Shown: positions 2,560 through 26,520, numbered from the stretch's first letter. The stretch: 32,065 nucleotides of DNA from Ilumatobacteraceae bacterium (GCA_040401775.1 JBBANV010000006.1:11211-43275); one strand, 5' to 3'. The notes: generated by a model from the letters alone, not told the origin. Translations and numbers: made by a program.

Positions 2560-2581
2560 CTCAAACATTATAGAGTTTGAG
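2560..2581. promoter_or_regulatory. Dyad site A: 22-bp palindrome CTCAAAC-ATTATAGA-GTTTGAG with core ACATTA|TAGAGT (2565-2576)
   Basis: It lies in the divergent gap between the SWEET-like gene (-) and the aminotransferase (+). 9 of 11 palindromic pairs match. Both halves fit TANNNT when read outward (TAATGT on the minus strand, TAGAGT on the plus strand). The minus strand also reads TATAAT. Confidence 0.6.
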
Positions 2582-2619
2582 ATATCGGCAATGTCGTTGT
2601 TGCCGAAAGGAGCACCATC

Positions 2620-3915
2620 TTGTCGTCGAATGCCGAGAGCACGTCACAGCGCTACACCAAGAGCATCGCCGCTCATGAAAGGCGCTCGCGTGTCATCGCA
2701 GGCGGTGTGAATTCGAACGTGCGACTCATGAGTCGACCCGTACCGCTCACCTTTACTCGTGCTCATGGTGCGATGATTTGGGACATCGATGGCAATGAAT
2801 ACATCGATTACGCAGCGGGTATGGGACCGACGATTCTCGGTCACAATCATCCGCGTGTGCTCGCCGCAGTGCAACAGGCCTTGCAGTCGGGACAATGTTT
2901 TGCTGGTCAGCACGAACTCGAAGCGGAGTTTGCCGAACGCCTCATCGGAGCAGTGCCGTGGATCGAGAACATTCGAATCGGTCTGGCCGGCTCCGACATG
3001 GACCTCCTCGCAGTGCGCATTGCAAAAGCAGTCACTGGTCGCTCGAAGGTTCTCCGTTTTACCGGCCACTACCACGGCTGGATTGATCCACTACTCGTTG
3101 GTCCAGGTGCCGCACCGACACCGTTCGGCACACCCCCCGTTGGACCAGGGCAGTCGGTGGCGGCCGCGAGTGAGATCGTGATGTGCGAATGGAACGATGT
3201 CTCGCTCGTAGAGCAGGTGTTTGCCGCACACCAGATCGCTTGCGTGATCATGGAGCCGATCATGTGCAACACCGGCGTGATCGCGGCGCAGCCCGGATAC
3301 ATCGAGGCAGTGAAGGCGTTGTGCAAGCAGCATGGTGCCGTCCTGGTCATCGACGAGGTGATCACCGGTTTCCGAGTCGGTCTTCAAGGTGCGCAAGGTC
3401 ATCTTGGCATCACCGGCGACATCACGTTGTATGCCAAGGCGATTGCATCGGGCTACCCCATGGCGGCCATCGGGACATCACGTGAACTGATGGCAGGAGT
3501 TGGTCGAGGTGAGGTCAACCACTCGGGCACCTACAATTCGGGATATCTCTCCGTCGCAGCAGCGGTGGAAACCATGAAGATCCTCGTCGAAGAGAACCCA
3601 TACCCGTCCTTGCAGAGGAACACGGTCAGACTCGTCGAAGGCTTGCGCAAGGTTGGCAACAGCAAGGGACTTGCCGTCGATTACGTTGCGGGCTCGCTCT
3701 TCCAAGTGCGTTTCGGTGCACAAGAGCCGATGCAAAACCGCGAGCATTTCGCCAAGAATTCGGACCAACCCAGGCTGATGAAGTTCCTCGACGCACTGCA
3801 GGATCGCGGAGTGCGACCAACCAGTCGTGGACTCTTCTTCGTGTCGGTGGCCCACGATGACCGACTGATCGACCGCACCTTGGAAATCACGGAGTCGGCA
3901 CTCGCCAGTATGTAA
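2620..3915 (+). CDS. Class-III (GSA-aminomutase-like) PLP aminotransferase
   Basis: 431 aa with a TTG start at 2620, 7 nt downstream of GAAAGGAG (2605-2612). Motifs GGVNSNVR, DYAAGMGPTILGHNHP, IDEVITGFR and YAKAIASGYP (candidate PLP lysine) are typical of the aminotransferase class III / HemL-like family. Confidence 0.88.
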   Translation: MSSNAESTSQRYTKSIAAHERRSRVIAGGVNSNVRLMSRPVPLTFTRAHGAMIWDIDGNEYIDYAAGMGPTILGHNHPRVLAAVQQALQSGQCFAGQHELEAEFAERLIGAVPWIENIRIGLAGSDMDLLAVRIAKAVTGRSKVLRFTGHYHGWIDPLLVGPGAAPTPFGTPPVGPGQSVAAASEIVMCEWNDVSLVEQVFAAHQIACVIMEPIMCNTGVIAAQPGYIEAVKALCKQHGAVLVIDEVITGFRVGLQGAQGHLGITGDITLYAKAIASGYPMAAIGTSRELMAGVGRGEVNHSGTYNSGYLSVAAAVETMKILVEENPYPSLQRNTVRLVEGLRKVGNSKGLAVDYVAGSLFQVRFGAQEPMQNREHFAKNSDQPRLMKFLDALQDRGVRPTSRGLFFVSVAHDDRLIDRTLEITESALASM

Positions 3916-3930
3916 CCGGTGATCCGGTTA
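3913..3930. terminator. Short bidirectional hairpin TAACCGG-TGAT-CCGGTTA that contains both convergent stop codons
   Basis: Perfect 7-bp stem with a 4-nt loop. TAA at 3913-3915 ends the aminotransferase. TTA at 3928-3930 is the reverse-complement TAA of the IlvD/Edd gene. There is no U-tract, so terminator function is uncertain. Confidence 0.35.
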
Positions 3931-5658
3931 GTGGCTTTCGCGAGTGACCTGCGAGCCACTCGAGCCCACGAGGAAATCGAGATCGCAACCCGTGTCGGCC
4001 TGCATCACGTGGTCGATGTACAAACGTGACCATCCCCTGGTGGCAACCGGTTCGGGTGCGCGCCACTTCGTGCGGCGAAGTTCCAGCTCTTCATCCGATA
4101 CGTGCAAGGTGAGCGTGCGTGACGGAACATCGAGCGTGATGCGGTCTCCCGTCTCAACAAGGGCGAGCGGTCCACCGAGCGTTGACTCGGGTGCAACATG
4201 CAGCACGGTGGTGCCGAATGCGGTACCACTCATACGTGCATCGCTGATGCGCACCATGTCACGCACACCTGCCTTCAGCATCTTCTCGGGCAGTGGCATG
4301 TTGCCGACCTCGGGCATTCCCGGGTAACCACGTGGACCACACCCGCGCAACACCAACACCGTTTCGGCGGTGACATCGAGCATCGGGTCGTCGACCCGGG
4401 CTTTGAAGTCCTCGATGGAATCGAATACCAGGGCTGGCCCCGTGTGCACGAGGAGCTCGGGAGAGGCTGCAGATGGCTTCACTACCGCACCTTGCGGACA
4501 CAGATTGCCCCGCAACACGGCGATTCCGGCCTCGGCAGTGATCGGATCGTTCAGTGATCGGATCATCGTTGGATCACTGTTCGTTCGACCCTGCCATGAT
4601 TCACGAATCGGACGACCCGTCACTGCAAGTGCGTCACCCTCCAGGATCGAGGAAAGTTCGGCCATGAGCGCCGGAATTCCACCGGCTTCGAAGAAATCCT
4701 CCATCAATCGACTTCCTGCAGGCATGATGTCGACGAGGAGCGGAAGACGCGATCCGATTCGGTCGATGTCATCCAACGTCAGCGGCACACCCACCCGTCC
4801 CGCAATCGCCAACAAGTGAATCACGGCATTGGTGGATCCGCCGATGGCAGACAGCACCTTCACGGCATTCTCGAACGCGTGGCGTGTCATCACCTTGCTT
4901 GGTCGCAGGTCTTCGTGCACCATCTGAACGATTCTTCGACCAGTCAGGTGAGCAAGTTGCTTGCGGCGGGTATCCGGCGCAGGAATCGCCGCGCTTTGCG
5001 GCAATGTCATGCCCAGTACCTCAGCCATTGATGCCATCGTGGACGCAGTGCCCATCGGATTGCAGTGTCCGGCACTGCGTGTCATCGATGATTCAGTGGC
5101 GACGAACTCCTCGGCACTCATCGTTCCCGCTCGCACCTCTTCGCTCATTCGCCACATGTCCGTTGCGGATCCAAGCGGCGCACCTCGATGCCGACCCGTC
5201 AACATCGGACCACCCGTGAGCATGATCGTGGGCAGGTCAACCGATGCAGCACCCATCAACATCGCAGGTGTCGTCTTGTCGCATCCCGAGAGCAGCACCA
5301 CTCCGTCGAGGGGATTGCACCGAATCGACTCCTCGACATCCATCGCCATCAGGTTGCGAAGCAACGCAGCCGTTGGCTGGATCTGGGTTTCACCCAAGGA
5401 AGTGACGGGGAACTCCAACGGCACTCCACCGGCCTCCCACACACCGCGCTTCACGAACTCGGCAAGTTCGTCGAGGTGTTGGTTGCAGGGAGTCAGGTCG
5501 GACGCAGAGTTGCAGATTCCGATCATCGGCTTTCCCGAGAACGCATCGTCGGGGAGTCCGCGCTTCATCCAACTTCGATGGATGTAGTTGTCTCGACTGG
5601 AACCGTCATACCAGTGACGTGTGCGAAGCGAGACGGGGGTTCCGTGTGGGGAGGTCAT
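3928..5658 (-). CDS. IlvD/Edd-family dehydratase (dihydroxy-acid / sugar-acid dehydratase)
   Basis: 576 aa. Family signatures are present: GICNSASDLTPCNQHL, SGCDKTTPAMLMGA and SAGHCNPMGTASTM (Fe-S cysteine positions). The start ATG at 5658 overlaps the upstream stop as ATGA (5655-5658). Confidence 0.9.
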   Translation of the reverse strand: MTSPHGTPVSLRTRHWYDGSSRDNYIHRSWMKRGLPDDAFSGKPMIGICNSASDLTPCNQHLDELAEFVKRGVWEAGGVPLEFPVTSLGETQIQPTAALLRNLMAMDVEESIRCNPLDGVVLLSGCDKTTPAMLMGAASVDLPTIMLTGGPMLTGRHRGAPLGSATDMWRMSEEVRAGTMSAEEFVATESSMTRSAGHCNPMGTASTMASMAEVLGMTLPQSAAIPAPDTRRKQLAHLTGRRIVQMVHEDLRPSKVMTRHAFENAVKVLSAIGGSTNAVIHLLAIAGRVGVPLTLDDIDRIGSRLPLLVDIMPAGSRLMEDFFEAGGIPALMAELSSILEGDALAVTGRPIRESWQGRTNSDPTMIRSLNDPITAEAGIAVLRGNLCPQGAVVKPSAASPELLVHTGPALVFDSIEDFKARVDDPMLDVTAETVLVLRGCGPRGYPGMPEVGNMPLPEKMLKAGVRDMVRISDARMSGTAFGTTVLHVAPESTLGGPLALVETGDRITLDVPSRTLTLHVSDEELELRRTKWRAPEPVATRGWSRLYIDHVMQADTGCDLDFLVGSSGSQVTRESH

Positions 5659-7130
5659 GTCCGCCAGTCTTCCATTGCATCCAACGGGTACATCGGCCGC
5701 GGAATTCTGGTCCAGGGCAACGAATGAACGTCCGATTGCGTTGGTCCGGGCGTTGCAACACGCACGAATTCAGTGGTGATTTCACGCATGTACTGAAAGT
5801 TGGAAGCCGTCTTCATCACGATCATCTTGTAGTCGGCGGGCTCCACGCCGAGATGGCGATAGACGCCTGGGTGAATTCCGCCGACTCCAGATGTTTCGGT
5901 AACGAGCAACGTCACCCGCCCTGCTTCGAGAATCACGGCATCACCCATGTCGACCGAACCCTGCGGAAGACCCTGAAGCGTCACGGCGCCGGAGCGTTTT
6001 GCTCGAAGTACCGCAGTTACCTTCACGGGTTGGTAAAACGAGTTTGCCCAGCCGCCGAGCTCGATCGTCACCGTGGACCCGACTTCGGCCGATGCGAGAC
6101 TCCGAGCCACGGTTGGGTCGGTCAGCGGAACCAACGCGCGATGCCGCAAATCGGTGGAGAGCAACTCGCGAAGAATCACCGTGCTGTCACCGGTGGAGCC
6201 ACCCAACACCGAATCCCCCGTGTCACTGAGGAGAACCACTCCCCGTGCCGCATCATCGGCATACGCAATTGCGCGACCTACTTCGAGATTGTCCAGCTTC
6301 ATGAATCGCTCACGCATCGACCATGCGTGATCGGCCAGCTCGTCGGCCAGTTGCTCTGCAGCGCCGGCATCGCCGTCGGTCACCACGACGATGGACCACC
6401 CGGCTTCTTCCACATCGAGCCATGGCTGCATGGGAAACAGCGAAACGGTGAGCACTCTTCCCTCCGACTCAAGCCGCCGTGCATGATCGAACCATTCCTT
6501 CATCGGGCCGCTCGCCGTGAGGAACTGCTCCTGATGCGTGATCATCGGGAGCTTCCGCCACGCCATCGTTGGTTCAACCTCACCCGAAAACATTTGAATC
6601 GCAATCTTGGTGAGGTCACGACCCGTTTCGAACGGGTCGTGCGGCTGCGTTCGAAACGCCATCAAGACATTCGTGTTCGACATCATCTTGTTGGTGACGT
6701 TCGCATGGTGGTCGAGCATCAATGCCAATGGTGTAACTGATCCAATCTCCTTGCGAATGACGGCAAGCAGTTCTCCTTCAACATCGTCAACACCAGCCGC
6801 CGACGCGGCACCGTGCAAGAACACGATGACTCCGTCGCACCTGCCCGCCTCGCGCAGCCCACGGGTGATGATGTTCGATAGCGCGGCGAGGGTGTCGGCG
6901 CTGAGTCGCCCACCCGACTGAGCATCAGCGCGAACAATCGGAACGATTTCAACGTTCTTGCCGCTCGTCCGCACGGCGTCGAGACAGCCGGCAATTGGCC
7001 CAGCGGGATCCACTCGTTCGAGGACACTCCTGCCCTCCAGCAGTGCCACATTGCGAAAACCGTCCAGCATCGTGGGGACCGGATTGAACGTGTCGGTCTC
7101 CTGCATCACATGAATCAACGCGACTCTCAT
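5655..7130 (-). CDS. MlrC-like M81-family metallopeptidase, paralog 1
   Basis: The ORF is open to 7265. The conserved family N-terminus MRVALIHVMQETDTFNPVP starts at ATG 7130, 31 nt after the SDR stop, with AAGGTGA upstream. The longer 5' extension would overlap the SDR gene. It is about 30% identical by eye to the ORF at 22740..24272. Confidence 0.82.
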   Translation of the reverse strand: MRVALIHVMQETDTFNPVPTMLDGFRNVALLEGRSVLERVDPAGPIAGCLDAVRTSGKNVEIVPIVRADAQSGGRLSADTLAALSNIITRGLREAGRCDGVIVFLHGAASAAGVDDVEGELLAVIRKEIGSVTPLALMLDHHANVTNKMMSNTNVLMAFRTQPHDPFETGRDLTKIAIQMFSGEVEPTMAWRKLPMITHQEQFLTASGPMKEWFDHARRLESEGRVLTVSLFPMQPWLDVEEAGWSIVVVTDGDAGAAEQLADELADHAWSMRERFMKLDNLEVGRAIAYADDAARGVVLLSDTGDSVLGGSTGDSTVILRELLSTDLRHRALVPLTDPTVARSLASAEVGSTVTIELGGWANSFYQPVKVTAVLRAKRSGAVTLQGLPQGSVDMGDAVILEAGRVTLLVTETSGVGGIHPGVYRHLGVEPADYKMIVMKTASNFQYMREITTEFVRVATPGPTQSDVHSLPWTRIPRPMYPLDAMEDWRT

Positions 7131-7161
7131 CGTGCGATTCACCTTGCCGTCGTCAAGCGGC

Positions 7162-7953
7162 TCAGTAGTGGATCCAGCCACCGTCGACGTTGATGACCTG
7201 ACCCGATACGAAGCTGCTGTCGTCGGATGCCAGATAGAGGAACGTTCCGGCAAGGTCATCGGCAAATCCGCGGCGGGGCAGGCATTGGCGTTCGGCGGAC
7301 AGTACCTTCAACTCTTCTTCGTCGAACCCAAGGGCTACTTCCTGCTCGGTACGAATCGCTCCAGGCATGACGGAGTTGACTCTGATGCCATCCTTGCCCA
7401 CCTCACGAGCGAGGGCGCGCGTGAAACCGATGAGTGCAGCCTTGGAGCTCACATAGTCGAGCAACCCGGCCATTCCGAGCTCCACCGTCACGCTGGTCAC
7501 CGTGATGATGTTTCCACTCTTGCGGCGAAGCATCCCGGGGTAGCACGCCTTTGCGCAGAGAAATGCCCCGCGAACGTTGACAGCTTGCGTGTAGTCCCAT
7601 TGCTTCGAGGTGATCTCGTGCCATGGCACGCGCACGCCGTAGGCCGCATTCGTCACCAGAATGTCGACATCGCCGAATTCTCGGTGTGCCGCTGCAACCA
7701 TCTCGGCGACCTGTTCTTCGGACGAAATGTCCGCGGGAACCTTCACTGCCGAACCACCCTCTGCCCGAATCGACGCAACCACGTCGTCGGCAAGTTTGCT
7801 CATCTTGTCGTCCGGATAGGTATTCACCACGACGGATGCACCTTCACGGGCGAACAACTTGGCAACGGCTGCCCCGATTCCCCACGAGGCGCCGGTCACC
7901 AGTGCGACGCGACCGGCCAGCTTCCCGCTGGCCTCACGAGGGGACGATGTCAC
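7162..7953 (-). CDS. SDR-family oxidoreductase (classical short-chain dehydrogenase)
   Basis: Carries TGASWGIG (TGxxxGxG), a NAA motif and YVSSKAA (YxxxK). I chose GTG at 7953 because it forms a GTGA overlap with the upstream SDR stop (7950-7952) and has GGAG 8 nt upstream. The ORF track's TTG at 7965 is an alternative start. Confidence 0.82.
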   Translation of the reverse strand: MTSSPREASGKLAGRVALVTGASWGIGAAVAKLFAREGASVVVNTYPDDKMSKLADDVVASIRAEGGSAVKVPADISSEEQVAEMVAAAHREFGDVDILVTNAAYGVRVPWHEITSKQWDYTQAVNVRGAFLCAKACYPGMLRRKSGNIITVTSVTVELGMAGLLDYVSSKAALIGFTRALAREVGKDGIRVNSVMPGAIRTEQEVALGFDEEELKVLSAERQCLPRRGFADDLAGTFLYLASDDSSFVSGQVINVDGGWIHY

Positions 7954-8834: not shown

Positions 8835-8846
8835 ATACTATACAGT
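8835..8846. promoter_or_regulatory. Dyad site B: ATACTA|TACAGT
   Basis: It lies in the divergent gap between the SDR operon (-) and the ABC importer operon (+). Both halves fit TANNNT read outward (TAGTAT on the minus strand, TACAGT on the plus strand). The predicted plus-strand TSS is near 8853, which leaves a roughly 23-nt leader carrying the SD AAGGGGGG. Confidence 0.5.
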
Positions 8847-10471: not shown

Positions 10472-10478
10472 GTGAATG

Positions 10479-10513: not shown

Positions 10514-10519
10514 ACGGTG

Positions 10520-10565
10520 ATGACCGTCCGGCGGTTGCGTACCGTCGGACGGTCATTTACTTTGT
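10520..10565 (+). terminator. Intrinsic-terminator-like hairpin (16-bp stem with one G-U, 5-nt loop) followed by TTACTTTGT
   Basis: 10520-10535 pairs with 10541-10556, and a T-rich tail follows at 10557-10565. It sits inside the ABC operon between the SBP gene and the first permease gene, so it is a candidate partial terminator or mRNA stabiliser. Confidence 0.6.
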
Positions 10566-14247: not shown

Positions 14248-14259
14248 ACTATATAGACT
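14248..14259. promoter_or_regulatory. Dyad site C: ACTATA|TAGACT, ending 6 nt before the PhyH-like ATG
   Basis: TAGACT (14254-14259) fits TANNNT and lies 6 nt upstream of ATG 14266, with no SD in between. That is leaderless-mRNA geometry. The left half also fits TANNNT on the minus strand (TATAGT), although no divergent gene exists there. Confidence 0.5.
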
Positions 14260-15271: not shown

Positions 15272-16141
15272 CTAGCCCTGCGGGGTGCCAAAGGGCGTGT
15301 AGCCGCGACCGGCAACTCCAGGTCGACACGCAAACAGCGATCCAGCCGACGGATTGGCGTGTCGACGTGCGTCATCAAGATCAACCGTTGCTGACGTGAT
15401 GTAGAGGGTGCGCAAGTCGACACCGCCAAACGCACAGCTCGTGATCCAACCTCCGGGCACGTCGATACGACAATCGATCTCACCACTCGGGCTCAGTCGA
15501 ACGACGCCGCCTCCGTCCCAGAGTGCGACCCAGATGCCACCTTCCATGTCCACCGACACGCCGTCGGGCAACACATCGAACGTGGCGATGGTGCGCTCGG
15601 AGACGGGGAATCCGTTGTCGTCAAGACTCAGCTCATCAACCGTGCGATGCAACGAATCGACGTGGTAGCACTTGGATCCGTCGGGACTCCAATCGATGCC
15701 GTTCGAAAGTGCGCGGCCCGAACGAACACGCCGCACGAAGCCCGAGTCATCAACGCAGAACACGCCGGCTCGATGTTCGCCGCTGCGGTCGACCGTGCCA
15801 ATCCACAGACGTCCATGCGGATCGCATCGTCCGTCATTGGCTCGGCCGTCCCCATCGGGTGGTAGTTCGGCCAAGACCGATCCAATCGCTCCCGAGGCAT
15901 TCAACGTGCCCACCTCGAGACCGGACACCGCCAACAACTCACCAGTACTCGTCGGTACCACCACGCTGGTCGGCGAACTCACCACTACTTCTTCATGCCG
16001 TCCGTCGCCGTACAAACGATGCAGAAGACGGCCGTCGATATCCAACCACAACAAGGTGGAGGTGGCGGCGTCCCACGTGACCCCCTCACCCAACAGGCTC
16101 CGACACTCCACCACCAGGTCGACCGACATCTCAGCCCCCAT
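15272..16141 (-). CDS. SMP-30/gluconolactonase/LRE-family lactonase
   Basis: 289 aa. It has LGEGVTWD near the N-terminus, repeated beta-propeller-like DG/DP blades, and NGIDWSPDG. ATG at 16129 (MSVDL...) is an alternative start. Confidence 0.85.
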   Translation of the reverse strand: MGAEMSVDLVVECRSLLGEGVTWDAATSTLLWLDIDGRLLHRLYGDGRHEEVVVSSPTSVVVPTSTGELLAVSGLEVGTLNASGAIGSVLAELPPDGDGRANDGRCDPHGRLWIGTVDRSGEHRAGVFCVDDSGFVRRVRSGRALSNGIDWSPDGSKCYHVDSLHRTVDELSLDDNGFPVSERTIATFDVLPDGVSVDMEGGIWVALWDGGGVVRLSPSGEIDCRIDVPGGWITSCAFGGVDLRTLYITSATVDLDDARRHANPSAGSLFACRPGVAGRGYTPFGTPQG

Positions 16142-16193
16142 GCTTACCGCCCCACAGTGGCCCTGGTAATTGGCGATTCATATGTGCTAGAAA

Positions 16194-16205
16194 AGATTAT
16201 AAACT
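16194..16205. promoter_or_regulatory. Dyad site D: AGATTA|TAAACT (inside the exact 13-mer AAAGATTATAAAC, 16192-16204)
   Basis: It lies in the divergent gap between the lactonase (-) and the ADH-UxuA operon (+). The minus strand reads TATAAT/TAATCT and the plus strand reads TAAACT. The 13-mer is identical to the one at 18750-18762. Confidence 0.55.
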
Positions 16206-18284: not shown

Positions 18285-18701
18285 TCACCGTTGCGGTCGC
18301 CTCACTGCGATCACGTCGATCTCGAACTTGAGTGCGACAGAGAGACAACTGGTAATCGTCGTTCGTGCCGGTAGCGGGGAAGAGAAGTACTCCCGGTACA
18401 GCAAGTTGTACTGCGGCAAATGGGCGGGATCGTGGACGTAACTCGTGACTCGTACGACGTCGCCGAGATCGAGCCCGACCGCAGCGAGGATTCGCTGGAC
18501 GTTCGACATCGACCGCCTCATTTCCTGTTCAAAGTCCCCGCTCACAATCACACCCTGGTCGTCCACCGAGGCCTGACCAGAAACGAAAACGAAACCGTTC
18601 GCTTCAACGGCGGCGGAGAAGGGAAGATGGCTCGAGATTGGTGTTTGAAGTGGTGACCAGCCACGGATGACGTTCGTAGTGGTTGGTGGTGTCTCTGACA
18701 T
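18285..18701 (-). CDS. RidA/YjgF/UK114-family reactive-intermediate (enamine/imine) deaminase
   Basis: I chose the start at ATG 18701 (MSETPPTT...), giving about 138 aa. The ORF-track extension to 18821 adds a non-conserved 40 aa that runs through the promoter dyad. Core motifs: FVFVSGQ, VRVTSYV, PARTTI. Confidence 0.82.
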   Translation of the reverse strand: MSETPPTTTNVIRGWSPLQTPISSHLPFSAAVEANGFVFVSGQASVDDQGVIVSGDFEQEMRRSMSNVQRILAAVGLDLGDVVRVTSYVHDPAHLPQYNLLYREYFSSPLPARTTITSCLSVALKFEIDVIAVRRPQR

Positions 18702-18751
18702 CAGCAGTTTCCATTTCTCTTTGCTCGTAGCTGGTTGTTGGGTATCATCAA

Positions 18752-18763
18752 AGATTATAAACA
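18752..18763. promoter_or_regulatory. Dyad site E: AGATTA|TAAACA (inside the 18-bp near-palindrome CAAAGATTATAAACATTG, 18749-18766)
   Basis: It lies in the divergent gap between RidA (-) and the D-aminoacylase (+). The minus strand reads TATAAT/TAATCT. The plus half TAAACA is the only one of 14 half-sites that fails TANNNT. Confidence 0.5.
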
Positions 18764-18856: not shown

Positions 18857-20458
18857 ATGATGCATGATGTCGTCATCAACGATGTGACCATCGTGGACGG
18901 AACGGGTGCCGCCCCGACACGTGGTCACGTCGCCGTAAAGGACGGGGTCATCACTGCGATCACGACGGATGCCGTGCCGGCGGCACACGACATGCAGGCA
19001 CGCACCGTCATCAGTGGTGCAGGCAAGGTGCTCTGTCCCGGGTTCATCGACATCCACACCCACTCCGATCTCACGTTGATCGAGGATGGTCGTGGCGAAA
19101 GCAAGTTGCGCCAAGGCGTCACCACCGAGGTGGTCGGAAACTGTTCGTTCTCGGCCTTCCCCATCGAACCCCGTCACCTCGACCTTCATGCGGATCACCT
19201 TGCGCGCGCCACCGCACCGATTCGACCCTGGTGGACCGACCTCGATGGGTATGCCGCTGCCCTCCACGACGAGGGAATCGCCCTCAACGTCGCGCCACTG
19301 GCGGGGCATGGCACGCTGCGCGTTGCTGCAATGGGTGTCGACCAACGACGTGCGACGGCATCGGAACTTGCACGGATGGTCTCGGACCTCCACACGGCGT
19401 TGGAGCAAGGCGCCTTCGGTATGAGCACTGGTCTCACCCATGTTCCAAGTGCCTACGGCGACTTCGACGAGGTGATTGCCCTTGCCGAGGTGCTGGCCGA
19501 ACATCGCGCTCTGTACGCAACACACTGTCGCGCGGCCGAGCCTGATGAACGTGCTGCCGTTGCTGAAACCATCGAACTCGGACGCCGAACCGGTGTCACC
19601 GTCGAATTCAGTCATCTCGCCATCAACCGACCGGATCGTTGGGGCACGGGCGACGAACTCCTCCGGATGTTCGATGATGCCCGCAAGGAAGGTATCGACA
19701 TCTTCTTTGACGTGTATCCGTACGACGCGTCGTCATCGTCACTCACGCAGTACTTGCCGCCTTGGTTGCAGGCTGGCGGCACCGAAGCCATGCGAGCACG
19801 CCTCGTGGATGGCGACCAGCGAGCACGAGCGCTCTCCGACATGACTGAGGGTTGGTTCAACGGGATTCCCTGGCTCTGGGATCGATTCCAAATCTCGAGC
19901 ACACCTGATGGTCGTTATGTTGGTGAAACACTCGAATCCGTATCGCAATCGTTGCGGATTGCCCCAGACGAACTCACACTTCGATTGTGCGAGGAGTACG
20001 GCAACGAAATTCAGGTGGTGCTGTTCTACCGAACCGAGGCCGACGTTTCGGCATTCTTACGACACCCGCTGGCCGTCGTTGGATCCGACGGCAACGCGAT
20101 CTCGCTCAATCAACCATGCGCACGTCCGCACCCCCGCAATTTCGGAACCTTTCCGCGTGTGCTGGGTCGTTATGTTCGCGACCGAGGCGTGCTCGAGCTC
20201 GCTGACGCCGTCCGCAAGATGACCTACGAACCGGCACGACGTCTTGGCATCCACGACCGCGGTCGAATCGCCACCGGACTAGCCGGCGACCTCGTGCTCC
20301 TCGATCCACAACAGGTCATCGATCGTGCCGACTTCGGTAAGGCTCCCGAGGGGCCGGTAGGTATATCTCACGTACTCGTCAATGGTCGCGTCGTGCTCAA
20401 CGATGGCATCATTTCCGATGAGCGCCCTGGTCGCGTATTACAACACGCTTCGCGCTAG
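18857..20458 (+). CDS. N-acyl-D-amino-acid deacylase (D-aminoacylase) family amidohydrolase
   Basis: 533 aa. The N-terminus DVVINDVTIVDGTGAAPTRGHVAVKDGVITAI and the metal motif GFIDIHTHSD are typical of the D-aminoacylase family. GGAAGG lies upstream of the ATG. Confidence 0.85.
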   Translation: MMHDVVINDVTIVDGTGAAPTRGHVAVKDGVITAITTDAVPAAHDMQARTVISGAGKVLCPGFIDIHTHSDLTLIEDGRGESKLRQGVTTEVVGNCSFSAFPIEPRHLDLHADHLARATAPIRPWWTDLDGYAAALHDEGIALNVAPLAGHGTLRVAAMGVDQRRATASELARMVSDLHTALEQGAFGMSTGLTHVPSAYGDFDEVIALAEVLAEHRALYATHCRAAEPDERAAVAETIELGRRTGVTVEFSHLAINRPDRWGTGDELLRMFDDARKEGIDIFFDVYPYDASSSSLTQYLPPWLQAGGTEAMRARLVDGDQRARALSDMTEGWFNGIPWLWDRFQISSTPDGRYVGETLESVSQSLRIAPDELTLRLCEEYGNEIQVVLFYRTEADVSAFLRHPLAVVGSDGNAISLNQPCARPHPRNFGTFPRVLGRYVRDRGVLELADAVRKMTYEPARRLGIHDRGRIATGLAGDLVLLDPQQVIDRADFGKAPEGPVGISHVLVNGRVVLNDGIISDERPGRVLQHASR

Positions 20459-21651: not shown

Positions 21652-21693
21652 GTGAGGGTCCGAAGGTTCAACGAGGGCAACGAAGATCCCGAA

Positions 21694-22695
21694 CTACTTG
21701 ACCACATAATGATCGGCGCCCTCGGTACCGGCGGCGCCAGCAAGGATGGAGTCGATCTCCCGAAGATCTGTTGGAGAGAGTGACCAGTCGACACCGGCGA
21801 CATTGTCATCAACTTCGGCCGGAGTAATCATGCCGGCAAGACACGTGCTCACGAAATCGTGCATCGCAACCCAGGCGATTGCCAACTGCGGAAGCGTTCG
21901 CGATCGAGATTCCGCAAACTGCTTCAGACGTTGTGCCATGGCAATGTTCTTGGTCAGATTCTCACCGAGGAAGAGCGGCAATCCGAAGACATCTCCTTTT
22001 GAACGCCAGTCACCGCTGGCGAAGGATGTCTCTGAGTTCCATGTTCCGGAAAACAGACCGTGGCACAGCGAACCATAGGTCATGAATCCGATGTCGTTGG
22101 CCGACACGTAGGGGACCATCGTTGCTTCCGTTCGGCGGTCGAGCATGTTGTATCCAGACTGTTGCACTTGAATGCTGCCGTGTTTGCGATACTCGTCGAG
22201 TTGTTCGGTGGTGAAGTTGGAAACTCCCACCGCACGGACCTTTCCGGAGTCCACGAGTTCGCGAAATGCCGTCATTGATCCGGCTGGCGAGCCGTCTGGA
22301 TCGGGCACATGAATGAGGAGAACGTCGATGAAATCGGTACGTAGACGTTGCAGACTTTGTTCTGCTGATGCAAGGATCGCCTCGCGATTCGATGTCGTCA
22401 CCCACTGTTCCTTCGAATAGTCCCAATGCACTGCACATTTGGTAACGACGACTGCATCCTCACGTCGCGAGCCGAGTGCCGTCCCGAGGATCGATTCGGC
22501 GCGACCGTTGCCGTAGGCAGGGGCCGTGTCGAACAATGTGACTCCCAAATCGAGTGCTCGATGAATCGCAGCAATGGCAGCGTCATCGTCGACCTTGCCG
22601 TAGTCACCTGCATGTTGCGTACCGCCGATCGGCCACATCCCAAAACCCAGAAGTGACACTTCGATTCCCGTGCTTCCGAGCTGTCGATACTTCAT
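21694..22695 (-). CDS. Aldo-keto reductase
   Basis: I chose the start at ATG 22695 (MKYRQLGSTGIEVSLLGFGMW), which is preceded by AAAAGGGG. The family core reads DTAPAYGNG ... the conserved Lys in VVTKCAVHWD. The 7-aa longer ORF-track start is less likely. Confidence 0.86.
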   Translation of the reverse strand: MKYRQLGSTGIEVSLLGFGMWPIGGTQHAGDYGKVDDDAAIAAIHRALDLGVTLFDTAPAYGNGRAESILGTALGSRREDAVVVTKCAVHWDYSKEQWVTTSNREAILASAEQSLQRLRTDFIDVLLIHVPDPDGSPAGSMTAFRELVDSGKVRAVGVSNFTTEQLDEYRKHGSIQVQQSGYNMLDRRTEATMVPYVSANDIGFMTYGSLCHGLFSGTWNSETSFASGDWRSKGDVFGLPLFLGENLTKNIAMAQRLKQFAESRSRTLPQLAIAWVAMHDFVSTCLAGMITPAEVDDNVAGVDWSLSPTDLREIDSILAGAAGTEGADHYVVK

Positions 22696-22720
22696 AAAGC
22701 CCCTTTTTGACGTCATGGCA

Positions 22721-22732
22721 ACTCTATAACAT
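22721..22732. promoter_or_regulatory. Dyad site F: ACTCTA|TAACAT
   Basis: It lies in the divergent gap between the AKR-enolase operon (-) and MlrC paralog 2 (+). The minus half TAGAGT predicts a roughly 19-nt leader with an SD for the AKR. The plus half TAACAT ends 7 nt before in-frame TTG 22740. It shares the 10-mer AACTCTATAA with the reverse complement of site A. Confidence 0.55.
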
Positions 22733-22739
22733 TCATTTT

Positions 22740-24272
22740 TTGCGAAGTCACCCTAGAGTTGCCTGCATTAACGCGTCATCTCGACATCTTCGTGTTGCCC
22801 TCACGGGTTTTCATCACGAGTCCAACACGTTCGCACCTGTACCTGCATCGCTCGAGCGATTCATGGCGGCCGGTCCGGTGGAAGAGGACGCCCTCATTCA
22901 CATGTACGGCGAATCTCAGGCCACCCTCGGTGGTTTTCTCGAGATTCGCTCACTCCCCGACCTGACGGTACGACCCCTCTTTCATGCAGATCTCAATCCC
23001 ATGGGCACGATCACCCGGGAGGCATTCGAAGCTCTCGTTGGGCGGATGCTCGAACGACTTGCGAGTGAGGGACCATGGGACGTCGTTCTGCTCGCGCTCC
23101 ACGGTGCAGCAGTTGCTGAGCACCAGCCTGATGCCGACGGGGAAATCATTGCGCGAGTTCGTCAACTCGTCGGCAAGGACGTGGTGATCGGCGTTGCACT
23201 CGACATGCACGCAAATGTGTCCGAGCGTATGGTGCACAACAGCACGGTGATCAATGCCTACCTCACCAACCCCCACGTCGACCCACGGGCCCGTGCACGT
23301 CAAGTCGCCGACCTCGCCCTCGCTGCGGCACGAAAGGAAGTTCAGCCGACGACGGCCTTCGTTCCGATTCCGGCAGCCATCAACATCCTCCGACAAGGCA
23401 CATCCGACTGGCCGATGTCGCATCTCGTGAGTGTCGCCAACGAAATACAGCAGCGCCAGGGAGTCTTGTCGGTGAGCGTTGTCGAAGGATTCCCGTACGC
23501 GGACGTCAATGAACTCGGAATGTCGTTCATCGTCATCACCGACAACAATCGCCCCCTGGCCGACCAATTGGCGAAGTCGCTTGCCAACGAAGCCTGGAGG
23601 ATGCGCAACGACTTCGTCGGCGACGGAGTCGATCTTGAAACGGCGCTGAATCGAGCGGCTGCCGCGCAACGTGGACCCATCGTCCTCCTCGACGTTGGCG
23701 ACAATGTGGGGGGTGGAAGTCCCGCCGACTCCACTCACGTGCTTGCGGCAGCTCAACGCTTGGGAATCGGAGGTCTGTTTCACTCACTATGCGACCCTGA
23801 AAGTGCCCAGGCATGTCACGCTGCCGGCGCCGGCGCCCGGGTCGACCTTCATGTCGGCGCCAAGACGGATGCGCTCCACGGTTCACCCGTGCACATCACC
23901 GGCGTCGTCAAACACGTCGATGATGGGCGATTCGAGGACACCGGAGTAACGCACGGAGGATTTCGCTTCTTCAACGCAGGTCCACGCGCACTCGTGCACA
24001 CCGACGACGACCACTACGTCCTCCTCAACTCGCGTCCGATGGGCAACACCAGCCGCGCCGAGTTGACGAGCGCTGGTCTCGTTCCAACCGACGTCAAGAT
24101 CATCGTTGCAAAGGGTGTGCACTCGCCGCGTGGCGCGTTCGAGCCGATCGCTGCCGAACTGATTCAACTCAATACACCGGGTTGCACCAGTGCCGACCTG
24201 TCGACGTTGCACTACGACCTTCGACGACGACCGATGTTTCCGTTCGAGCCCGACGCCACTTTCTCGGCGTAG
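22740..24272 (+). CDS. MlrC-like M81-family metallopeptidase, paralog 2 (start codon uncertain)
   Basis: The conserved N-terminus LRVALTGFHHESNTFAPVP aligns with MRVALIHVMQETDTFNPVP of paralog 1, but the equivalent codon is CTT. In-frame candidate starts are TTG 22740, TTG 22707 and ATT 22767. None has an SD. Confidence 0.75.
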   Translation: MRSHPRVACINASSRHLRVALTGFHHESNTFAPVPASLERFMAAGPVEEDALIHMYGESQATLGGFLEIRSLPDLTVRPLFHADLNPMGTITREAFEALVGRMLERLASEGPWDVVLLALHGAAVAEHQPDADGEIIARVRQLVGKDVVIGVALDMHANVSERMVHNSTVINAYLTNPHVDPRARARQVADLALAAARKEVQPTTAFVPIPAAINILRQGTSDWPMSHLVSVANEIQQRQGVLSVSVVEGFPYADVNELGMSFIVITDNNRPLADQLAKSLANEAWRMRNDFVGDGVDLETALNRAAAAQRGPIVLLDVGDNVGGGSPADSTHVLAAAQRLGIGGLFHSLCDPESAQACHAAGAGARVDLHVGAKTDALHGSPVHITGVVKHVDDGRFEDTGVTHGGFRFFNAGPRALVHTDDDHYVLLNSRPMGNTSRAELTSAGLVPTDVKIIVAKGVHSPRGAFEPIAAELIQLNTPGCTSADLSTLHYDLRRRPMFPFEPDATFSA

Positions 24273-24273
24273 T

Positions 24274-24285
24274 TCGTACCGACGA
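24274..24285. other. Palindrome TCGT-ACCG-ACGA in the convergent gap (14-mer TTCGTACCGACGAG)
   Basis: It sits between the MlrC-2 stop (24272) and the PLP-enzyme stop (24295). 12 of 14 positions are identical to CTCGTGCCAACGAG at 26522-26535. It may be a short RNA hairpin or a protein site. Confidence 0.3.
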
Positions 24286-24294
24286 GAAGACCGA

Positions 24295-25536
24295 CTAGAA
24301 GAAGGTTCGAGCCACCTCGACTACGCGGTACTCGTCGTCGACGATGGGAAGTGCCCGCCATTTGTCGAACGTGGTGCAGGGATGCGAGATTCCAAGTCCC
24401 ACGAGGTCACCGACTGCAACGTCGTCCGCAGCATCGACATCCAGGTAGGTGTGCTGATCATCGACTCGTACCGCACGTCCAATTGCCGACCACGCTTCCA
24501 CTCCCGAGCCTCCCCGCCGTCGACGCTTCTTGGCAATGGGGAGCAACCCGTCGGTAGAAACGTCACGTTTACCCACACCCACGACCACTCGCGTGGGTTC
24601 CGGACGCGACAACACCACGCCCCATACCTCAAGAGCAGCCTGAAAGACTTCGCCGAGTTCTCGCGGTGCCGCACCGAGTGGAGAAAGCTCGTGAATCACG
24701 CCGTCGTCATGGCTGATGTAGCACCCACTGCGTACCACGACTCGTTCGGGCATCGTCGTGTTGGCCCGGTACAGCTTTGCGACGACTCGCTCAAAAAAGA
24801 CGCTGCCACCTGCGCTGAGGATGACTTCGTTGCCGTCGGTGACGAGTCGTTGCAGGATCAGTTCGTCCACCAGCCGACGCAATTCGGACAGGAAGTCATC
24901 GACGCGTTCCTCGGCGGATTGCGACTCGGTTGCCGAGATGATTCCTTCGAAGCCCGAAGCCCCAACCAGGCGAAGTGTCGAGCAGGATGCCACCTTCCGC
25001 GCAACCACAAGTGCTTCAGCAACGCTGCGACATCCCGTGCGTCCGTGTGACACACCAAGTTCTACGAGCACGGGAACCTGCACACCCACCGGCAGTGTGT
25101 CGAGACCTTCGTGGAGAAGGTTCACCGCATCCAAGGAATCGACACAGCAGTACACCTCGTGACCTCGTCGAGTGGCCATTGCCAACCACGCGATGTCCCC
25201 TGGTGCAACCACCTCGTTGGCAATGAACACTCGGGGTACTCCGTGATCGACCATCGTCTTTGCTTGAAACGTGGTTGCTGCAGTGATCGCCCATGCCCCA
25301 TCCGCCAGCTGCAGACGAAAAAGCTCGGGGGACATCGTCGTCTTGCCATGAGGTGCGAAGGAAACACTTCGACGGCGACAATAGGCCGCGAAACTGGCAC
25401 TGTTGTTCGCCAGAGCCGAACGCAGGAGCACTGCCGATGGCATGAGTACATCGGCATCGAAAATCGACCAACCGACGGAACGCCTCCGCCGCACGGGAAA
25501 ACCCTTGCGCTCAACTTTTCGGTTCAGCACGTCCAT
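24295..25536 (-). CDS. Fold-type-III PLP enzyme, alanine-racemase-N plus D-serine-dehydratase-like domains (DSD1 / D-threonine aldolase / 'amino acid deaminase' family)
   Basis: I chose ATG at 25536 (MDVLNRK...), which overlaps the upstream stop as ATGA (25535-25538). The 89-aa ORF-track extension lies inside the upstream gene. The PLP-lysine motif is FAPHGKTT and the C-terminal motif is GISHPCTTFDKW. Confidence 0.72.
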   Translation of the reverse strand: MDVLNRKVERKGFPVRRRRSVGWSIFDADVLMPSAVLLRSALANNSASFAAYCRRRSVSFAPHGKTTMSPELFRLQLADGAWAITAATTFQAKTMVDHGVPRVFIANEVVAPGDIAWLAMATRRGHEVYCCVDSLDAVNLLHEGLDTLPVGVQVPVLVELGVSHGRTGCRSVAEALVVARKVASCSTLRLVGASGFEGIISATESQSAEERVDDFLSELRRLVDELILQRLVTDGNEVILSAGGSVFFERVVAKLYRANTTMPERVVVRSGCYISHDDGVIHELSPLGAAPRELGEVFQAALEVWGVVLSRPEPTRVVVGVGKRDVSTDGLLPIAKKRRRRGGSGVEAWSAIGRAVRVDDQHTYLDVDAADDVAVGDLVGLGISHPCTTFDKWRALPIVDDEYRVVEVARTFF

Positions 25537-26465
25537 CAACCAAGTGTGATTCGTCCGTCGATGGTTACCTTCGACACTGGTGCACCAGTTGGCGCGAACG
25601 GTGTGATGGACATCGTCGTGCTGCGCGACTCGCCCGGAGCAAGATCGATGGCTTGACCACGGCGGCGAGCCTCGGCCAAACCGATTCCCGGCCATGTGCA
25701 GGCTGGTTCGATGGCCACCAACGATGCGCGCCCGTAAAACGGGAACCCTGTGCTGCCATTCTCGCGCCACAGCCACACGTGCGGAAAATCTCTCGCCTCC
25801 CATGCCATGGCAACTCCGATGTCCGAACGGCGAAGCGCAGCCCAGCCATGCTCGAGGTCGGTGATGAAGTGCACGCTTTCCTGCGGCGACTGGTCGTCGA
25901 CCACATCAAGACGCGTCGACCCGGCAAGCGGCCAGACTCCCAACGACGTACCTGATGCGTCGGCAACGTTCGTTGCGGGTAGGTCGATGAGATCACCATC
26001 TTGCGTACGGAATGCAGGATGCTCGCCCCAGATGAACGACGTGGATTCCGTCGACTGATTGTGGACCGTCGTGGCGATTTCTACTCGATCAGGATTCGTT
26101 CGAAGTGAAACTTCACGCGTCACGGTGATGGGCAACCGCGTTCCGGCGCGGACTCTGACCATCGACTCGGTTTGCGCCACCACATCCACGTGAGTTCTCG
26201 ACCACTCCCCGTGGAATGGAAGATTCACTCCGTCCACCTCACACTCGGGGCCGGCATTGGGTATCAGAAACTGCCATCCACCCCGATATTCCGAAAGCCA
26301 GTCATGTCGATGATTGCCATAGGCAGTACTCCTTCCAACGGCGACGGGACTGTCCCAGTCGTAATACGCAAGAAGCTCTGTGGCACCCAGAGAAATTTGT
26401 GTGATTTCGGCCCCCAGGTGCTCATTGATTCGAACCGTCAGGTGGTCGTTCTGCAGGGTGATCAC
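25536..26465 (-). CDS. Galactose-mutarotase-fold (aldose 1-epimerase-like) protein
   Basis: I chose the start at GTG 26465 (VITLQNDHLTVRINEHLGAEITQI...), preceded by AAAGG. The family has a beta-sandwich fold, with LPFHGEW and WGEHPAF motifs typical of the aldose-epimerase superfamily. The ORF-track ATG at 26582 would run through the GntR gene start. Confidence 0.7.
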   Translation of the reverse strand: MITLQNDHLTVRINEHLGAEITQISLGATELLAYYDWDSPVAVGRSTAYGNHRHDWLSEYRGGWQFLIPNAGPECEVDGVNLPFHGEWSRTHVDVVAQTESMVRVRAGTRLPITVTREVSLRTNPDRVEIATTVHNQSTESTSFIWGEHPAFRTQDGDLIDLPATNVADASGTSLGVWPLAGSTRLDVVDDQSPQESVHFITDLEHGWAALRRSDIGVAMAWEARDFPHVWLWRENGSTGFPFYGRASLVAIEPACTWPGIGLAEARRRGQAIDLAPGESRSTTMSITPFAPTGAPVSKVTIDGRITLG

Positions 26466-26505
26466 GGCCGAACCTTTACTGTGGCTTTGGAAATTGGATG
26501 GTCGA

Positions 26506-26517
26506 ATCGTATAGCAT
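26506..26517. promoter_or_regulatory. Dyad site G: ATCGTA|TAGCAT
   Basis: It lies between the mutarotase-like gene (-) and the GntR operon (+). The minus half TACGAT predicts a roughly 34-nt leader with an SD. The plus half TAGCAT ends 7 nt before GTG 26525, which is leaderless geometry. Confidence 0.5.
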
Positions 26518-26520
26518 CTG

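Follow-up and report, generated by a model that had tools for sequence, protein, structure and literature searches.

A 12-bp dyad, ANNNTA/TANNNT (the slash marks its axis), occurs seven times in a nutrient-breakdown gene island in the DNA analysed here, a stretch of 32,065 nucleotides (the window) from a freshwater lineage of Ilumatobacteraceae (Acidimicrobiia). The sites are real: their positions and key bases are conserved among relatives, they are confined to the island, and they are distinct from the generic promoters of the clade. We consider it somewhat probable (roughly 0.55) that each dyad is a single operator laid over two abutting -10 elements, and that the seven copies make one regulon of the approximately 13 transcription units that lie under dyad sites, gntR among them. 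The locus yields a directly testable candidate regulon of seven sites and one regulator.

Freshwater Ilumatobacteraceae, abundant but essentially uncultured, have to our knowledge had no earlier account of their transcriptional control. The generic promoters reported below are the first to be described for this group.

Dyad Sites and Gene Context

With start codons refined and genes called by Pfam, all seven sites fall in gene-start gaps. Six gaps are divergent and the remaining site, C, lies 6 nt upstream of the phyH ATG, which agrees with the placement given in an earlier note made from the sequence (six sites in divergent gaps and one before a PhyH-like gene). Every coordinate and sequence of the seven 12-mers in that note was reproduced. 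The sites, the regulator gene and a control promoter are as follows (dyads are given without strand).

Site A, 2565..2576: ACATTA/TAGAGT, in the gap between a SWEET-like gene (1868-2467, minus) and a class-III aminotransferase gene (2620-3915, plus)
Site B, 8835..8846: ATACTA/TACAGT, in the gap that separates the SDR-SDR-M81-ILVD operon (minus strand, start codon 8720) from the operon of the ABC transporter (SBP ATG 8876)
Site C, 14248..14259: ACTATA/TAGACT, with TAGACT followed by 6 nt and the leaderless phyH ATG 14266
Site D, 16194..16205: AGATTA/TAAACT, in the gap that separates the SGL gene (gluconolactonase-like; 15272-16141, minus) from the ADH-UxuA operon (ATG 16227)
Site E, 18752..18763: AGATTA/TAAACA, in the gap between the RidA gene (18285-18701, minus) and the amidohydrolase gene (18857-20458, plus)
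Site F, 22721..22732: ACTCTA/TAACAT, in the gap between the AKR-MR_MLE operon (ATG 22695, minus) and a second M81/MlrC-like peptidase gene (~22794-24272, plus)
Site G, 26506..26517: ATCGTA/TAGCAT, in the gap between the DUF4432-DSD operon (GTG 26465, minus) and gntR
gntR, 26525..27232, plus strand: GntR-family regulator of the FadR/FCD subfamily, candidate repressor (Pfam PF00392 and PF07729)
Control outside the regulon, 31985..31996, minus strand: TACTGT (31996..31991) separated by 6 nt from GTG 31984, promoter of the second SWEET-like gene

As had been claimed, 13 of the 14 half-sites in the window fit TANNNT; the plus-strand half of site E (TAAACA) lacks the final T, and by this base alone site E misses the strict dyad ANNNTATANNNT. 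The earlier estimate of about ten TATA tetramers, seven of them in sites, needs a small revision: 11 were counted (2569, 8839, 9233, 14250, 14252, 16198, 18756, 20362, 22725, 26510, and 30957), and eight lie in sites because site C holds two overlapping copies. The remaining three, inside coding sequences (9233, 20362, and 30957), fail the dyad pattern, as was said of them. The reported resemblances beyond the hexamers also hold: sites D and E share the 13-mer AAAGATTATAAAC (16192-16204 and 18750-18762), site F and the reverse complement of site A share the 10-mer AACTCTATAA (22720-22729; 2568-2577 reverse-complemented), site A falls inside a 22-bp palindrome at 2560-2581, and site E is a 14/18 palindrome.

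The earlier note had described the second SWEET-like gene (31376-31984, minus) as not covered by a dyad. Its promoter is leaderless and generic, built like the 38 generic -10 elements collected from the clade, and serves as an example in the window of a promoter without a dyad. No RNA family was matched in an Rfam search of the whole window. A hairpin at the 5′ end of gntR (26521-26536) is without conservation in three related loci (L004, L017, and L169) and would be partly untranscribed if gntR is leaderless.

Conservation and Confinement of the Dyad

More than 20 Ilumatobacteraceae genomes and contigs, ranging from 51 to 70% GC, retain the pattern A-N3-TATA-N3-T in the orthologous gaps, with drift in the flanks and at the N positions. 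The orthologous dyads comprise 32 distinct 12-mers, and the pattern can be written as AANNNTATANNNTT for genome scans. T and A at ±2 are invariant, positions ±3 are unconserved (A 22, C 10, G 17, T 15; n = 64), and A/T is found at ±7 in 60 of 80 half-sites. The N positions show preferences for W at position 4 and R at position 5, which resemble the universal TATAAT consensus. The A/T-rich form persists in genomes of 68-70% GC, and in L012 and L164 (68% GC), 11-18 kb contain no TATA tetramers besides the two in the site E and G dyads.

Individual sites vary in how they are preserved. Site B has the orthologues ATAGTATACGAT, ATGCTATACGAT, and ATGTTATAAGGT in L006, L007, and L020. Site D is asymmetric in more distant relatives, where the variant CTGYTATAWAGT is conserved in L007-L011, L020, L171, and L172. 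The defect of site E recurs throughout the W sub-clade; its orthologues in L006-L012, L020, L164, and L171 are full dyads, among them the perfect palindromes ACTTTATAAAGT and ACATTATAATGT. The site F 12-mer is identical in L005 and L169, the flanks being no longer alignable in L169. A 20-mer around site G is common to the window and L169, with flanking proteins just 50-54% identical, and a site G dyad precedes gntR in every island-context locus.

Site C, where the upstream gene is co-directional in the window, had been offered as evidence for an operator on the ground that no divergent gene exists there. That argument must be corrected, since the counterparts in L003 and L005 (ACTATATATACT and ACTATATACACT) lie in a divergent gap adjoining a second ABC transporter, so that site C alone could be a relic. 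The conclusion nevertheless holds without site C, because full symmetry is also present in co-directional gaps of L104 (2718), L172 (5652), and L173 (4370), making four such gaps with the window. In L172, the -10 that fits the leaderless gntR is in another register (TACTAT), and the dyad is nonetheless intact.

Related loci were covered to ±10 kb around each, with intergenic and coding DNA assigned by a simple codon-usage gene caller. Neither a dyad nor TATANNNT was found in 107 non-island intergenic gaps of close relatives (22.5 kb; 49 divergent), which came from a metagenome scan with an M14 peptidase, and the 15 intergenic dyads in 383 kb are all at site A and B positions. Control loci from Planctomycetota and other phyla gave one dyad among 66 intergenic TATA tetramers, and distant Acidimicrobiia loci with island-like genes and without the GntR regulator gave none. 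The earlier note had posed a choice between a generic -10 element and a regulon signal; on related DNA the dyad is island-confined and compositionally distinct, an outcome that favours a shared operator.

Gene-Facing Hexamers as -10 Elements

In actinobacterial leaderless promoters, TANNNT precedes the start codon by about 7 nt. Approximately 30% of the other genes of the clade obey this rule, and the generic promoters are leaderless, with TANNNT followed by G and no visible -35 element. Their spacings of 6, 7, and 8 nt were counted 19, 36, and 3 times (n = 58), other spacings giving 0-5. Among 20 orthologous cases, 19 have the gntR or phyH start codon (in L173, that of the first gene of the gntR operon) 6-9 nt past the right hexamer; at site G, TAGCAT is followed by 7 nt and GTG 26525 of the leaderless gntR. 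The gene-facing right hexamers are at -10 distance from leaderless start codons and match the generic peak, which bears out the -10 reading for these halves. Leaderless starts lend support to initiation on the gntR and phyH side only.

The gntR and phyH promoters obey the actinobacterial rule exactly, but the island hexamers differ from it in being A/T-rich, preceded by TA, followed by T and not G, and mirrored on the opposite strand. The 38 generic -10s of the clade are G/C-rich, have G at -6 and are never TATANNNT, whereas A/T-richness and T at -6 mark the island hexamers. The difference is seen for A/T at -9 (island 47/64 vs generic 10/38, p = 4e-6), A at -8 (31/64 vs 1/38, p = 4e-7), T at -6 (35/64 vs 4/38, p = 6e-6), and G at -6 (2/64 vs 27/38, p = 1e-13).

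Three other interpretations were tried and rejected. A generic actinobacterial -10 and nothing more conflicts with the island confinement and with the base composition relative to the 38 generic -10s. Taking the central TATANN as the true -10 would place leaderless start codons at +3 to +6, and this register was rejected because they are expected at +1. An archaeal TATA-box promoter (TATA centre; 29 nt to the ADH start) was dismissed in view of Shine-Dalgarno sites (GGGGGA for the ADH-UxuA operon), bacterial regulators and the Acidimicrobiia lineage.

Symmetric bidirectional sigma-70 promoters, described by Warman, Grainger and colleagues, are similar to the island sites in having opposite-strand -10s in a fixed symmetric register between divergent genes, and two RNA polymerase binding modes would exclude each other in both. 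Known symmetric forms consist of overlapping TANNNTA with a spacing of 18, the commonest, or of a shared TA with a spacing of 23, and the spacings tied to increased divergent transcription are 18, 29, 23, 12, 10, and 7 (bioRxiv 10.1101/2020.01.31.928960; PMC12825309). Different from these, the island hexamers abut (ANNNTA/TANNNT), the geometry predicts a transcription start site (TSS) spacing of 25, and the arrangement is confined to one gene island with no genome-wide tendency (0/49 divergent non-island gaps).

The GntR Regulator and Its Closest Relatives

The GntR/FCD protein is the sole regulator in the window, as the earlier note held, and the Pfam calls there include no second regulator or sigma gene. 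Its PDB matches are 3c7j, 4p9f, 7xp0, and 6z74, the last being Atu1419 (E = 8e-12). NCBIfam gives only sub-threshold PhnR and CsiR hits, so no effector can be proposed. The recognition helix CGTSFIPVREAL (SFIPVREAL) is unusual, and 111 of 120 homologues have it unchanged, at overall identities as low as 50%; in the alignment to Atu1419, it has Phe at the position of Arg45 and Ile at that of Thr46. Dyads are present in 17 of 20 regulator-encoding loci, a co-occurrence that is confounded by phylogeny. In L165-L167, a non-island homologue with the same recognition helix has just TATATT, a plain -10, ahead of its leaderless start; the ±10 kb around it contain no dyad, and its divergent partner is a non-island gene.

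The closest known systems are FadR/FCD operators with 2-nt GT..AC spacing (B. subtilis GntR, UxuR, and HypR) and that of Atu1419 from Agrobacterium fabrum (PDB 6z74, 6za0-6zab). At this 2-nt spacing the core of FadR-subfamily operators is GTATAC, and single sites are typically mid-divergon and regulate both operons (PMC4494728). The family signature is a pair of TKGT/ACMA boxes with the G read by a recognition-helix Arg (PMC4494728; PMC7797058); in the case of Atu1419, the operator ATGTATACAT is a palindrome centred on TATA that overlaps -10 boxes, and its essential G is read by Arg45 (PMC7797058). Similar to these operators, including that of Atu1419, the island dyads are short A/T-rich palindromes centred on TA/TA and overlapping -10 boxes, and A-N3-TATA-N3-T is complete in six of the seven window sites. 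They also share a location before the regulator's own gene and mid-divergon in a local catabolic cluster, and a nearby regulator with a GntR wHTH and an FCD domain.

In contrast to the known operators, the G/C at ±3 (TKGT/ACMA) is not conserved in the island dyads, whose conserved bases lie at ±6 and ±7 instead, giving a predicted site of 12-14 bp vs 10 bp, and the G-reading Arg is Phe in the island orthologous group. Phe in place of the guanine-reading Arg fits an operator without the canonical GT/AC, and the loss of Arg matches the missing conserved G/C at ±3. BioR, a FadR-subfamily GntR regulator, has the operator TTATMKATAA, grouped with direct-repeat motifs that depart from the GT/AC palindrome (PMC4494728). 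By the description of its operator, it is likewise a FadR-type regulator with an all-A/T palindromic operator lacking the GT/AC core, but its operator is unlike the island dyad in sequence and length.

Proposed Operator and Alternative Explanations

In the reading that we prefer, the outward hexamers would be sigma-A -10 elements (TANNNT) driving the flanking transcription units, with some transcripts leaderless (gntR, phyH) and others carrying short Shine-Dalgarno-bearing leaders. A dyad-symmetric operator of about 14 bp, AA-N3-TATA-N3-TT, would be superimposed on the hexamer pair and read by a dimer of the island FCD-type GntR. The bound repressor would cover the -10s of both divergent promoters together and might be released by some catabolic intermediate, so that one protein and one effector could switch about 13 transcription units including gntR. 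Binding by the island GntR, repression and the firing of both halves are what we infer from the sequence. The support for the operator (confinement, co-directional symmetry, positions ±7 and composition) is indirect, because A, TATA, and T are exactly what a pair of -10s needs. Several observations count against this reading: the conserved asymmetric variants at site D and, in the W sub-clade, at site E, the absence of the canonical GntR GT/AC signature from the dyads, and the L165-L167 homologue, which has an identical helix and a plain -10 only.

A narrower version, to which we give a little less than even odds, is that a GntR/FCD repressor without the Arg-guanine contact reads a dyad in which T-12, A-11, and T-7 of either strand, six bases in all, are invariant and are also those required by sigma-A at the abutting -10s. 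If so, one 12-14 bp element would be two promoters and an operator, the repressor would vie with polymerase for the very same bases, and through its seven copies about 13 transcription units of a flexible catabolic island would come under a single switch. Such dual use would be a compact design for the co-regulation of divergent operons from a single element. A GntR-family operator off the GT/AC rule, paired with a substituted base-reading Arg, would also be a natural example useful for models of the specificity code of the family.

The alternative that survives best, although we regard it as rather unlikely, is that the sites are bidirectional core promoters only, in which abutting sigma-A -10s direct divergent transcription from TSSs some 25 bp apart, no protein reads the dyad, and any regulation lies elsewhere. 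The 13 fitting half-sites, the leaderless spacing and the TATAAT-like preferences at positions 4 and 5 all suit it, symmetric bidirectional promoters are common in bacteria including actinobacteria (bioRxiv 10.1101/2020.01.31.928960; PMC12825309), and the L165-L167 homologue, whose divergent partner is a non-island gene, retains the -10 half only. It is opposed by the 49 divergent non-island gaps without the arrangement, by generic -10s that are G/C-rich with G at -6, by a predicted spacing of 25 that is outside the listed values, by the symmetry kept in four co-directional gaps, and by the A/T-rich form kept at 68-70% GC, where it is the sole source of TATA tetramers. It also leaves T at -6 and TA at -14/-13 without a role, as we know of none for either in sigma-A recognition.

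Slightly less probable still is that another factor reads the dyad, either a regulator encoded elsewhere or an alternative sigma factor preferring A/T-rich -10s, and that the GntR operator is a different, unrecognised one. A dyad without the GT/AC signature that an operator of the GntR family should carry (PMC4494728; PMC7797058) and the homologue without a dyad in L165-L167 speak for this, as does the ±10 kb range of inspection around each locus. Against it, the window has no other regulator or sigma gene, the dyad stands before gntR in every island-context locus, the Arg-to-Phe change predicts a non-canonical operator, and an alternative sigma factor would leave the dyad symmetry unexplained. 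Moreover, when the dyads were masked and the seven regions searched for exact 7-mers, 8-mers with one mismatch and 10-mers with two mismatches, no other motif was common to more than five of the seven regions and none was palindromic.

Chance occurrence of TATA in A/T-rich intergenic DNA is already refuted: although the window total of TATA is ordinary (11 vs 9.0 ± 3.1 in dinucleotide shuffles), six strict dyads were observed vs 0.37 expected with 0/100 shuffles reaching six, the position is conserved across many genomes, TATA is nearly absent from the clade's non-island intergenic DNA (60% GC), and one of 120 coding TATA fits the dyad.

Of the seven sites, a scan for E. coli-type sigma-70 promoters hit only two, A on its plus strand (TTGACG and TAGAGT, 18 nt apart) and B on its minus strand (TTGAAA and TATAGT, 17 nt apart); the scan is uninformative for this lineage because promoter-like matches are not above shuffles. 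The -35-like TTGACG at 2547-2552, 18 nt 5′ of TAGAGT, is kept together with the site A 12-mer in L083-L090, L101, and L117, with a variable spacer between them.

Dyads in the catabolic island

The earlier note had described seven copies of a 12-bp dyad, ANNNTA|TANNNT, formed by two abutting, outward-facing TANNNT hexamers, and all seven 12-mers (A–G) were recovered at their positions. The window (32,065 bp, 59% GC) contains 11 TATA tetramers, an ordinary number compared with 9.0 ± 3.1 in dinucleotide-preserving shuffles. The dyad pattern ANNNTATANNNT was matched six times against 0.37 expected, none of 100 shuffles reached six, and site E misses it by the last T only. The dyad pattern is real and strongly non-random, and an origin by chance can practically be dismissed. 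A sequence check likewise confirmed the 13-mer common to D and E, the 10-mer that F has in common with A (reverse-complemented), and the palindromes around A (22 bp) and at E (14/18).

Order of genes and dyads along the window, from Pfam annotation and start-codon inspection
M14 peptidase, plus strand; followed by a SWEET-like gene, minus strand, before site A
Site A, 2565–2576: between the SWEET-like gene (minus) and aminotransferase (plus)
ILVD, M81, SDR and SDR, minus strand: between aminotransferase and site B
Site B, 8835–8846: between ILVD-M81-SDR-SDR (minus) and five ABC transporter genes (plus)
Site C, 14248–14259: between the ABC transporter genes (plus) and PhyH (plus)
Site D, 16194–16205: between SGL (minus) and ADH and UxuA (plus)
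Site E, 18752–18763: between RidA (minus) and amidohydrolase (plus)
Site F, 22721–22732: between MR_MLE and AKR (minus) and M81 (plus)
Site G, 26506–26517: between DSD and DUF4432 (minus) and GntR, FAD oxidase, FAH, AstE and PALP (plus)
Second SWEET-like gene, minus strand: last, past PALP

This layout agrees with the earlier placement of six sites in divergent gaps and one directly upstream of phyH, and Pfam annotation likewise identified the GntR/FCD protein as the sole regulator in the window.

Conservation among relatives

With the UxuA-like protein as query, a scan of a genome collection assigned the window to freshwater Ilumatobacteraceae (Acidimicrobiia, Actinomycetota), with MAG matches 96–71% identical, and the island was found whole or in large parts in related loci L003–L012, L017 and L020. 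Searching metagenomes with the M14 peptidase yielded 80 further loci and, with them, non-island sequence of this clade amounting to several hundred kilobases. The M14/SWEET pair forms a conserved core. Some genomes continue from it into the island and many relatives (L091–L100, L102 and L105–L113) into unrelated genes, and thus the aminotransferase-to-PALP block behaves as a flexible inserted island.

Across orthologous gaps A-N3-TATA-N3-T is kept, and the N positions and flanks drift.

Orthologous variants of two dyads
Site E: AGATTATAAACA, ACTTTATAAAGT, ACATTATAATGT, ATCTTATAGGAT, AATTTATAGAGT
Site G: ATCGTATAGCAT, ATAGTATATGAT, ATCGTATAGTAT, ATAATATACCAT, AGAATATATAAT

In loci L012 and L164 (68% GC), TATA occurs only twice in 11–18 kb, in the dyads of sites E and G. 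Related locus L169 matches the window fully or almost fully over a 20-mer at site G and the site F 12-mer; the adjoining proteins are 50–54% (G) and 73–74% (F) identical, and the remainder of both gaps is no longer alignable.

Island identity between L169 and the window is a mosaic, high in ADH (95%), UxuA (92%) and RidA (86%) and low in DSD (58%), DUF4432 (50%), GntR (54%) and AstE (55%), which suggests that recombination or allelic replacement may have occurred within the island between lineages. Three non-homologous positions share the 13-mer AAAGATTATAAAC: window D (16192–16205), window E (18750–18762) and the M14/aminotransferase gap of L104 (2714–2729), with the 14-mer AAAGATTATAAACT as a longer form common to site D and L104; this recurrence may reflect gene conversion between sites or a favoured form of high affinity. 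The SGL/ADH gap of the more distant relatives L021, L023 and L027 lacks the dyad and carries a different inverted repeat, TATGCTA...AGCATA (e.g., ctcaTATGCTActttcgactcAGCATAcgag), probably the operator of another regulator.

Gene-facing hexamers and generic promoters

Counted from the end of the right hexamer, the start codon of gntR or phyH (in L173, that of the gntR operon's first gene) begins at nucleotide 6–9, most often 7 or 8, in 19 of 20 orthologous cases; the one deviation is L164, whose long-read assembly is prone to indels. Among 187 non-island genes from the non-island parts of L084–L117, TANNNT lies 6, 7 and 8 nt upstream of an in-frame start 19, 36 and 3 times, and 0–5 times at each other spacing. 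Given this peak, approximately 30% of the clade's non-island genes appear to be leaderless, which provides a first view of generic leaderless promoters in this uncultured but abundant lineage. Because generic genes share this spacing with gntR and phyH, the halves that face genes are very likely genuine −10 elements. For Shine–Dalgarno-led genes, predicted leaders of 20–110 nt are plausible.

A non-redundant set of 38 −10s from generic leaderless promoters follows the form TA-(G/C-rich)-T then G, with G at −6 in 27 and TANNNT mostly ending 6–7 nt upstream of the start; none of them has TA directly upstream, and no −35 signal is visible. The second SWEET-like gene, previously noted as the only unit without a dyad, has a promoter of this generic form (31985–31996; TACTGT, 6 nt, GTG) and serves as an in-window control.

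Coding and intergenic TATA in related loci were assigned by a simple codon-usage model. In 383 kb from close relatives, 15 of 20 intergenic TATA are full dyads, all at site A or B positions, and one dyad was found among 120 coding TATA. Before unrelated genes, where the earlier note had proposed looking, neither the dyad nor TATANNNT occurs in 107 non-redundant non-island gaps of close relatives (22.5 kb, 49 divergent). Non-Acidimicrobiia loci from the UxuA-like scan, mostly Planctomycetota, contain one dyad among 66 intergenic TATA. Compared with the 38 generic −10s, the 64 half-sites of 32 distinct island 12-mers differ at every free position, and the dyad is not the clade's generic promoter.

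Base composition of island half-sites and generic −10s
A or T at −9: island 47/64, generic 10/38, p = 4e-6
A at −8: island 31/64, generic 1/38, p = 4e-7
T at −6: island 35/64, generic 4/38, p = 6e-6
G at −6: island 2/64, generic 27/38, p = 1e-13

A candidate operator of the island regulator

Both readings offered earlier, back-to-back −10s and a shared operator, are supported. We consider the dyad to be additionally a candidate operator of the island GntR regulator (probability about 0.55). The 26525–27232 protein has GntR and FCD domains (Pfam) and matches solved FCD regulators including Atu1419 (6z74, E = 8e-12), whose operator ATGTATACAT is a TATA-centred palindrome overlapping −10 boxes and whose Arg45 reads an essential guanine, a contact considered by the authors typical of the family (PMC7797058). 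S44-R45-T46-P-V-R49 of Atu1419 aligns with S-F-I-P-V-R in the island regulator. Of 120 homologues, 111 share its helix CGTSFIPVREAL (or ...REAM), with identity as low as 50%, so specificity should be constant across these genomes.

FadR-subfamily operators are A/T-rich palindromes with TKGT/ACMA boxes, including a class with 2-nt spacing and a GTATAC core, and single mid-divergon sites usually control both operons (PMC4494728). This GTATAC-core class and the Atu1419 site are the closest operator kinds. The island dyad keeps the frame N-T-A|T-A-N but fails the GT/AC criterion; ±3, which the missing Arg would contact, is no longer conserved, and conservation has been gained at ±6 and ±7. The dyad would thus combine two −10 elements with a signal, non-canonical in sequence, for a local GntR-type regulon and depart instructively from the operator rule of GntR regulators; the candidate regulon is clean and testable in an uncultured but abundant lineage.

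A pure bidirectional promoter without a dedicated protein is rather unlikely, even though the invariant bases of the dyad are exactly those that two −10 hexamers require and the argument for a dedicated protein is therefore indirect. Symmetric −10 bidirectional promoters are well described, most commonly with a TSS spacing of 18 bp from overlapping hexamers (TANNNTA), further spacings of 29, 23, 12, 10 and 7, and 18–19 in actinobacteria (bioRxiv 10.1101/2020.01.31.928960; PMC12825309). In contrast, the abutting hexamers of the island predict 25 bp, outside the spacings reported as enriched, and their arrangement is not genome-wide. Against an operator, besides the invariant bases, count an asymmetric version of site D, CTGYTATAWAGT, that is conserved within one sub-clade, and the TAAACA of site E in the window's sub-clade. 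The homologue of L165–L167, whose helix is identical but whose neighbouring genes are unrelated, has a plain TATATT upstream of a leaderless start, with no mirrored half there and no dyad within ±10 kb.

Independent −10 elements, however, give no reason for the persistence of an unused half. The earlier argument on this point used site C, symmetric without a divergent gene; site C by itself could be a relic, because in L003 and L005 it lies in a divergent gap adjoining a minus-strand second ABC transporter, whose absence from the window leaves it without a partner. The argument stands on three other co-directional full dyads: L104 2718, between M14 and aminotransferase, with the same 12-mer as site D; L172 5652, between ADH and gntR; and L173 4370, flanked by two minus-strand genes. 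The L172 hexamer at leaderless distance from gntR is in another register (TACTAT), and the dyad is still intact. The second ABC transporter of L003 and L005 separates phyH from the ABC ATPase gene; it is 35–41% identical to the first, with additional TATA elements close to its own start.

That a factor other than the island GntR reads the dyad is quite improbable. In favour of the island GntR, dyads occur in 17 of 20 loci encoding it, a co-occurrence confounded by shared ancestry, and more distant Acidimicrobiia loci having island-like genes without the regulator have none. A search for another motif common to the seven regions found none.

Other elements and gene models

A CCTCG-N6-CGAGG palindrome spans the gntR start codon (26521–26536). 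It is doubly compensated in L005 (TTTCG-N6-CGAAA), reads CTCGCCATGGCGAG centred on ATG in L011 and L165–L167, and is not conserved in L004, L017 and L169; it may be coincidental or serve as a second operator element. A CGGCAA-N8-TTGCCG inverted repeat in the aminotransferase 5′ leader (2586–2605), just upstream of the Shine–Dalgarno site, is conserved in L083–L101. In the ABC operon, a strong 17-bp stem-loop between the solute-binding-protein and first permease genes (10519–10557) probably serves as an attenuator or intercistronic stabiliser.

The mechanical minus-strand ORFs 24295–25803 (D-Ser-dehydratase-like) and 25536–26582 (DUF4432) overlap by ~265 nt, with orthologues alignable in both frames. 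Start-codon inspection and the L001 and L169 gene calls indicate N-terminal over-extension, the real genes being DSD 24295–25539 and DUF4432 25536–26465, with a 4-nt overlap. The convergent PALP and second SWEET-like genes overlap at their 3′ ends by 68 nt (31376–31443).
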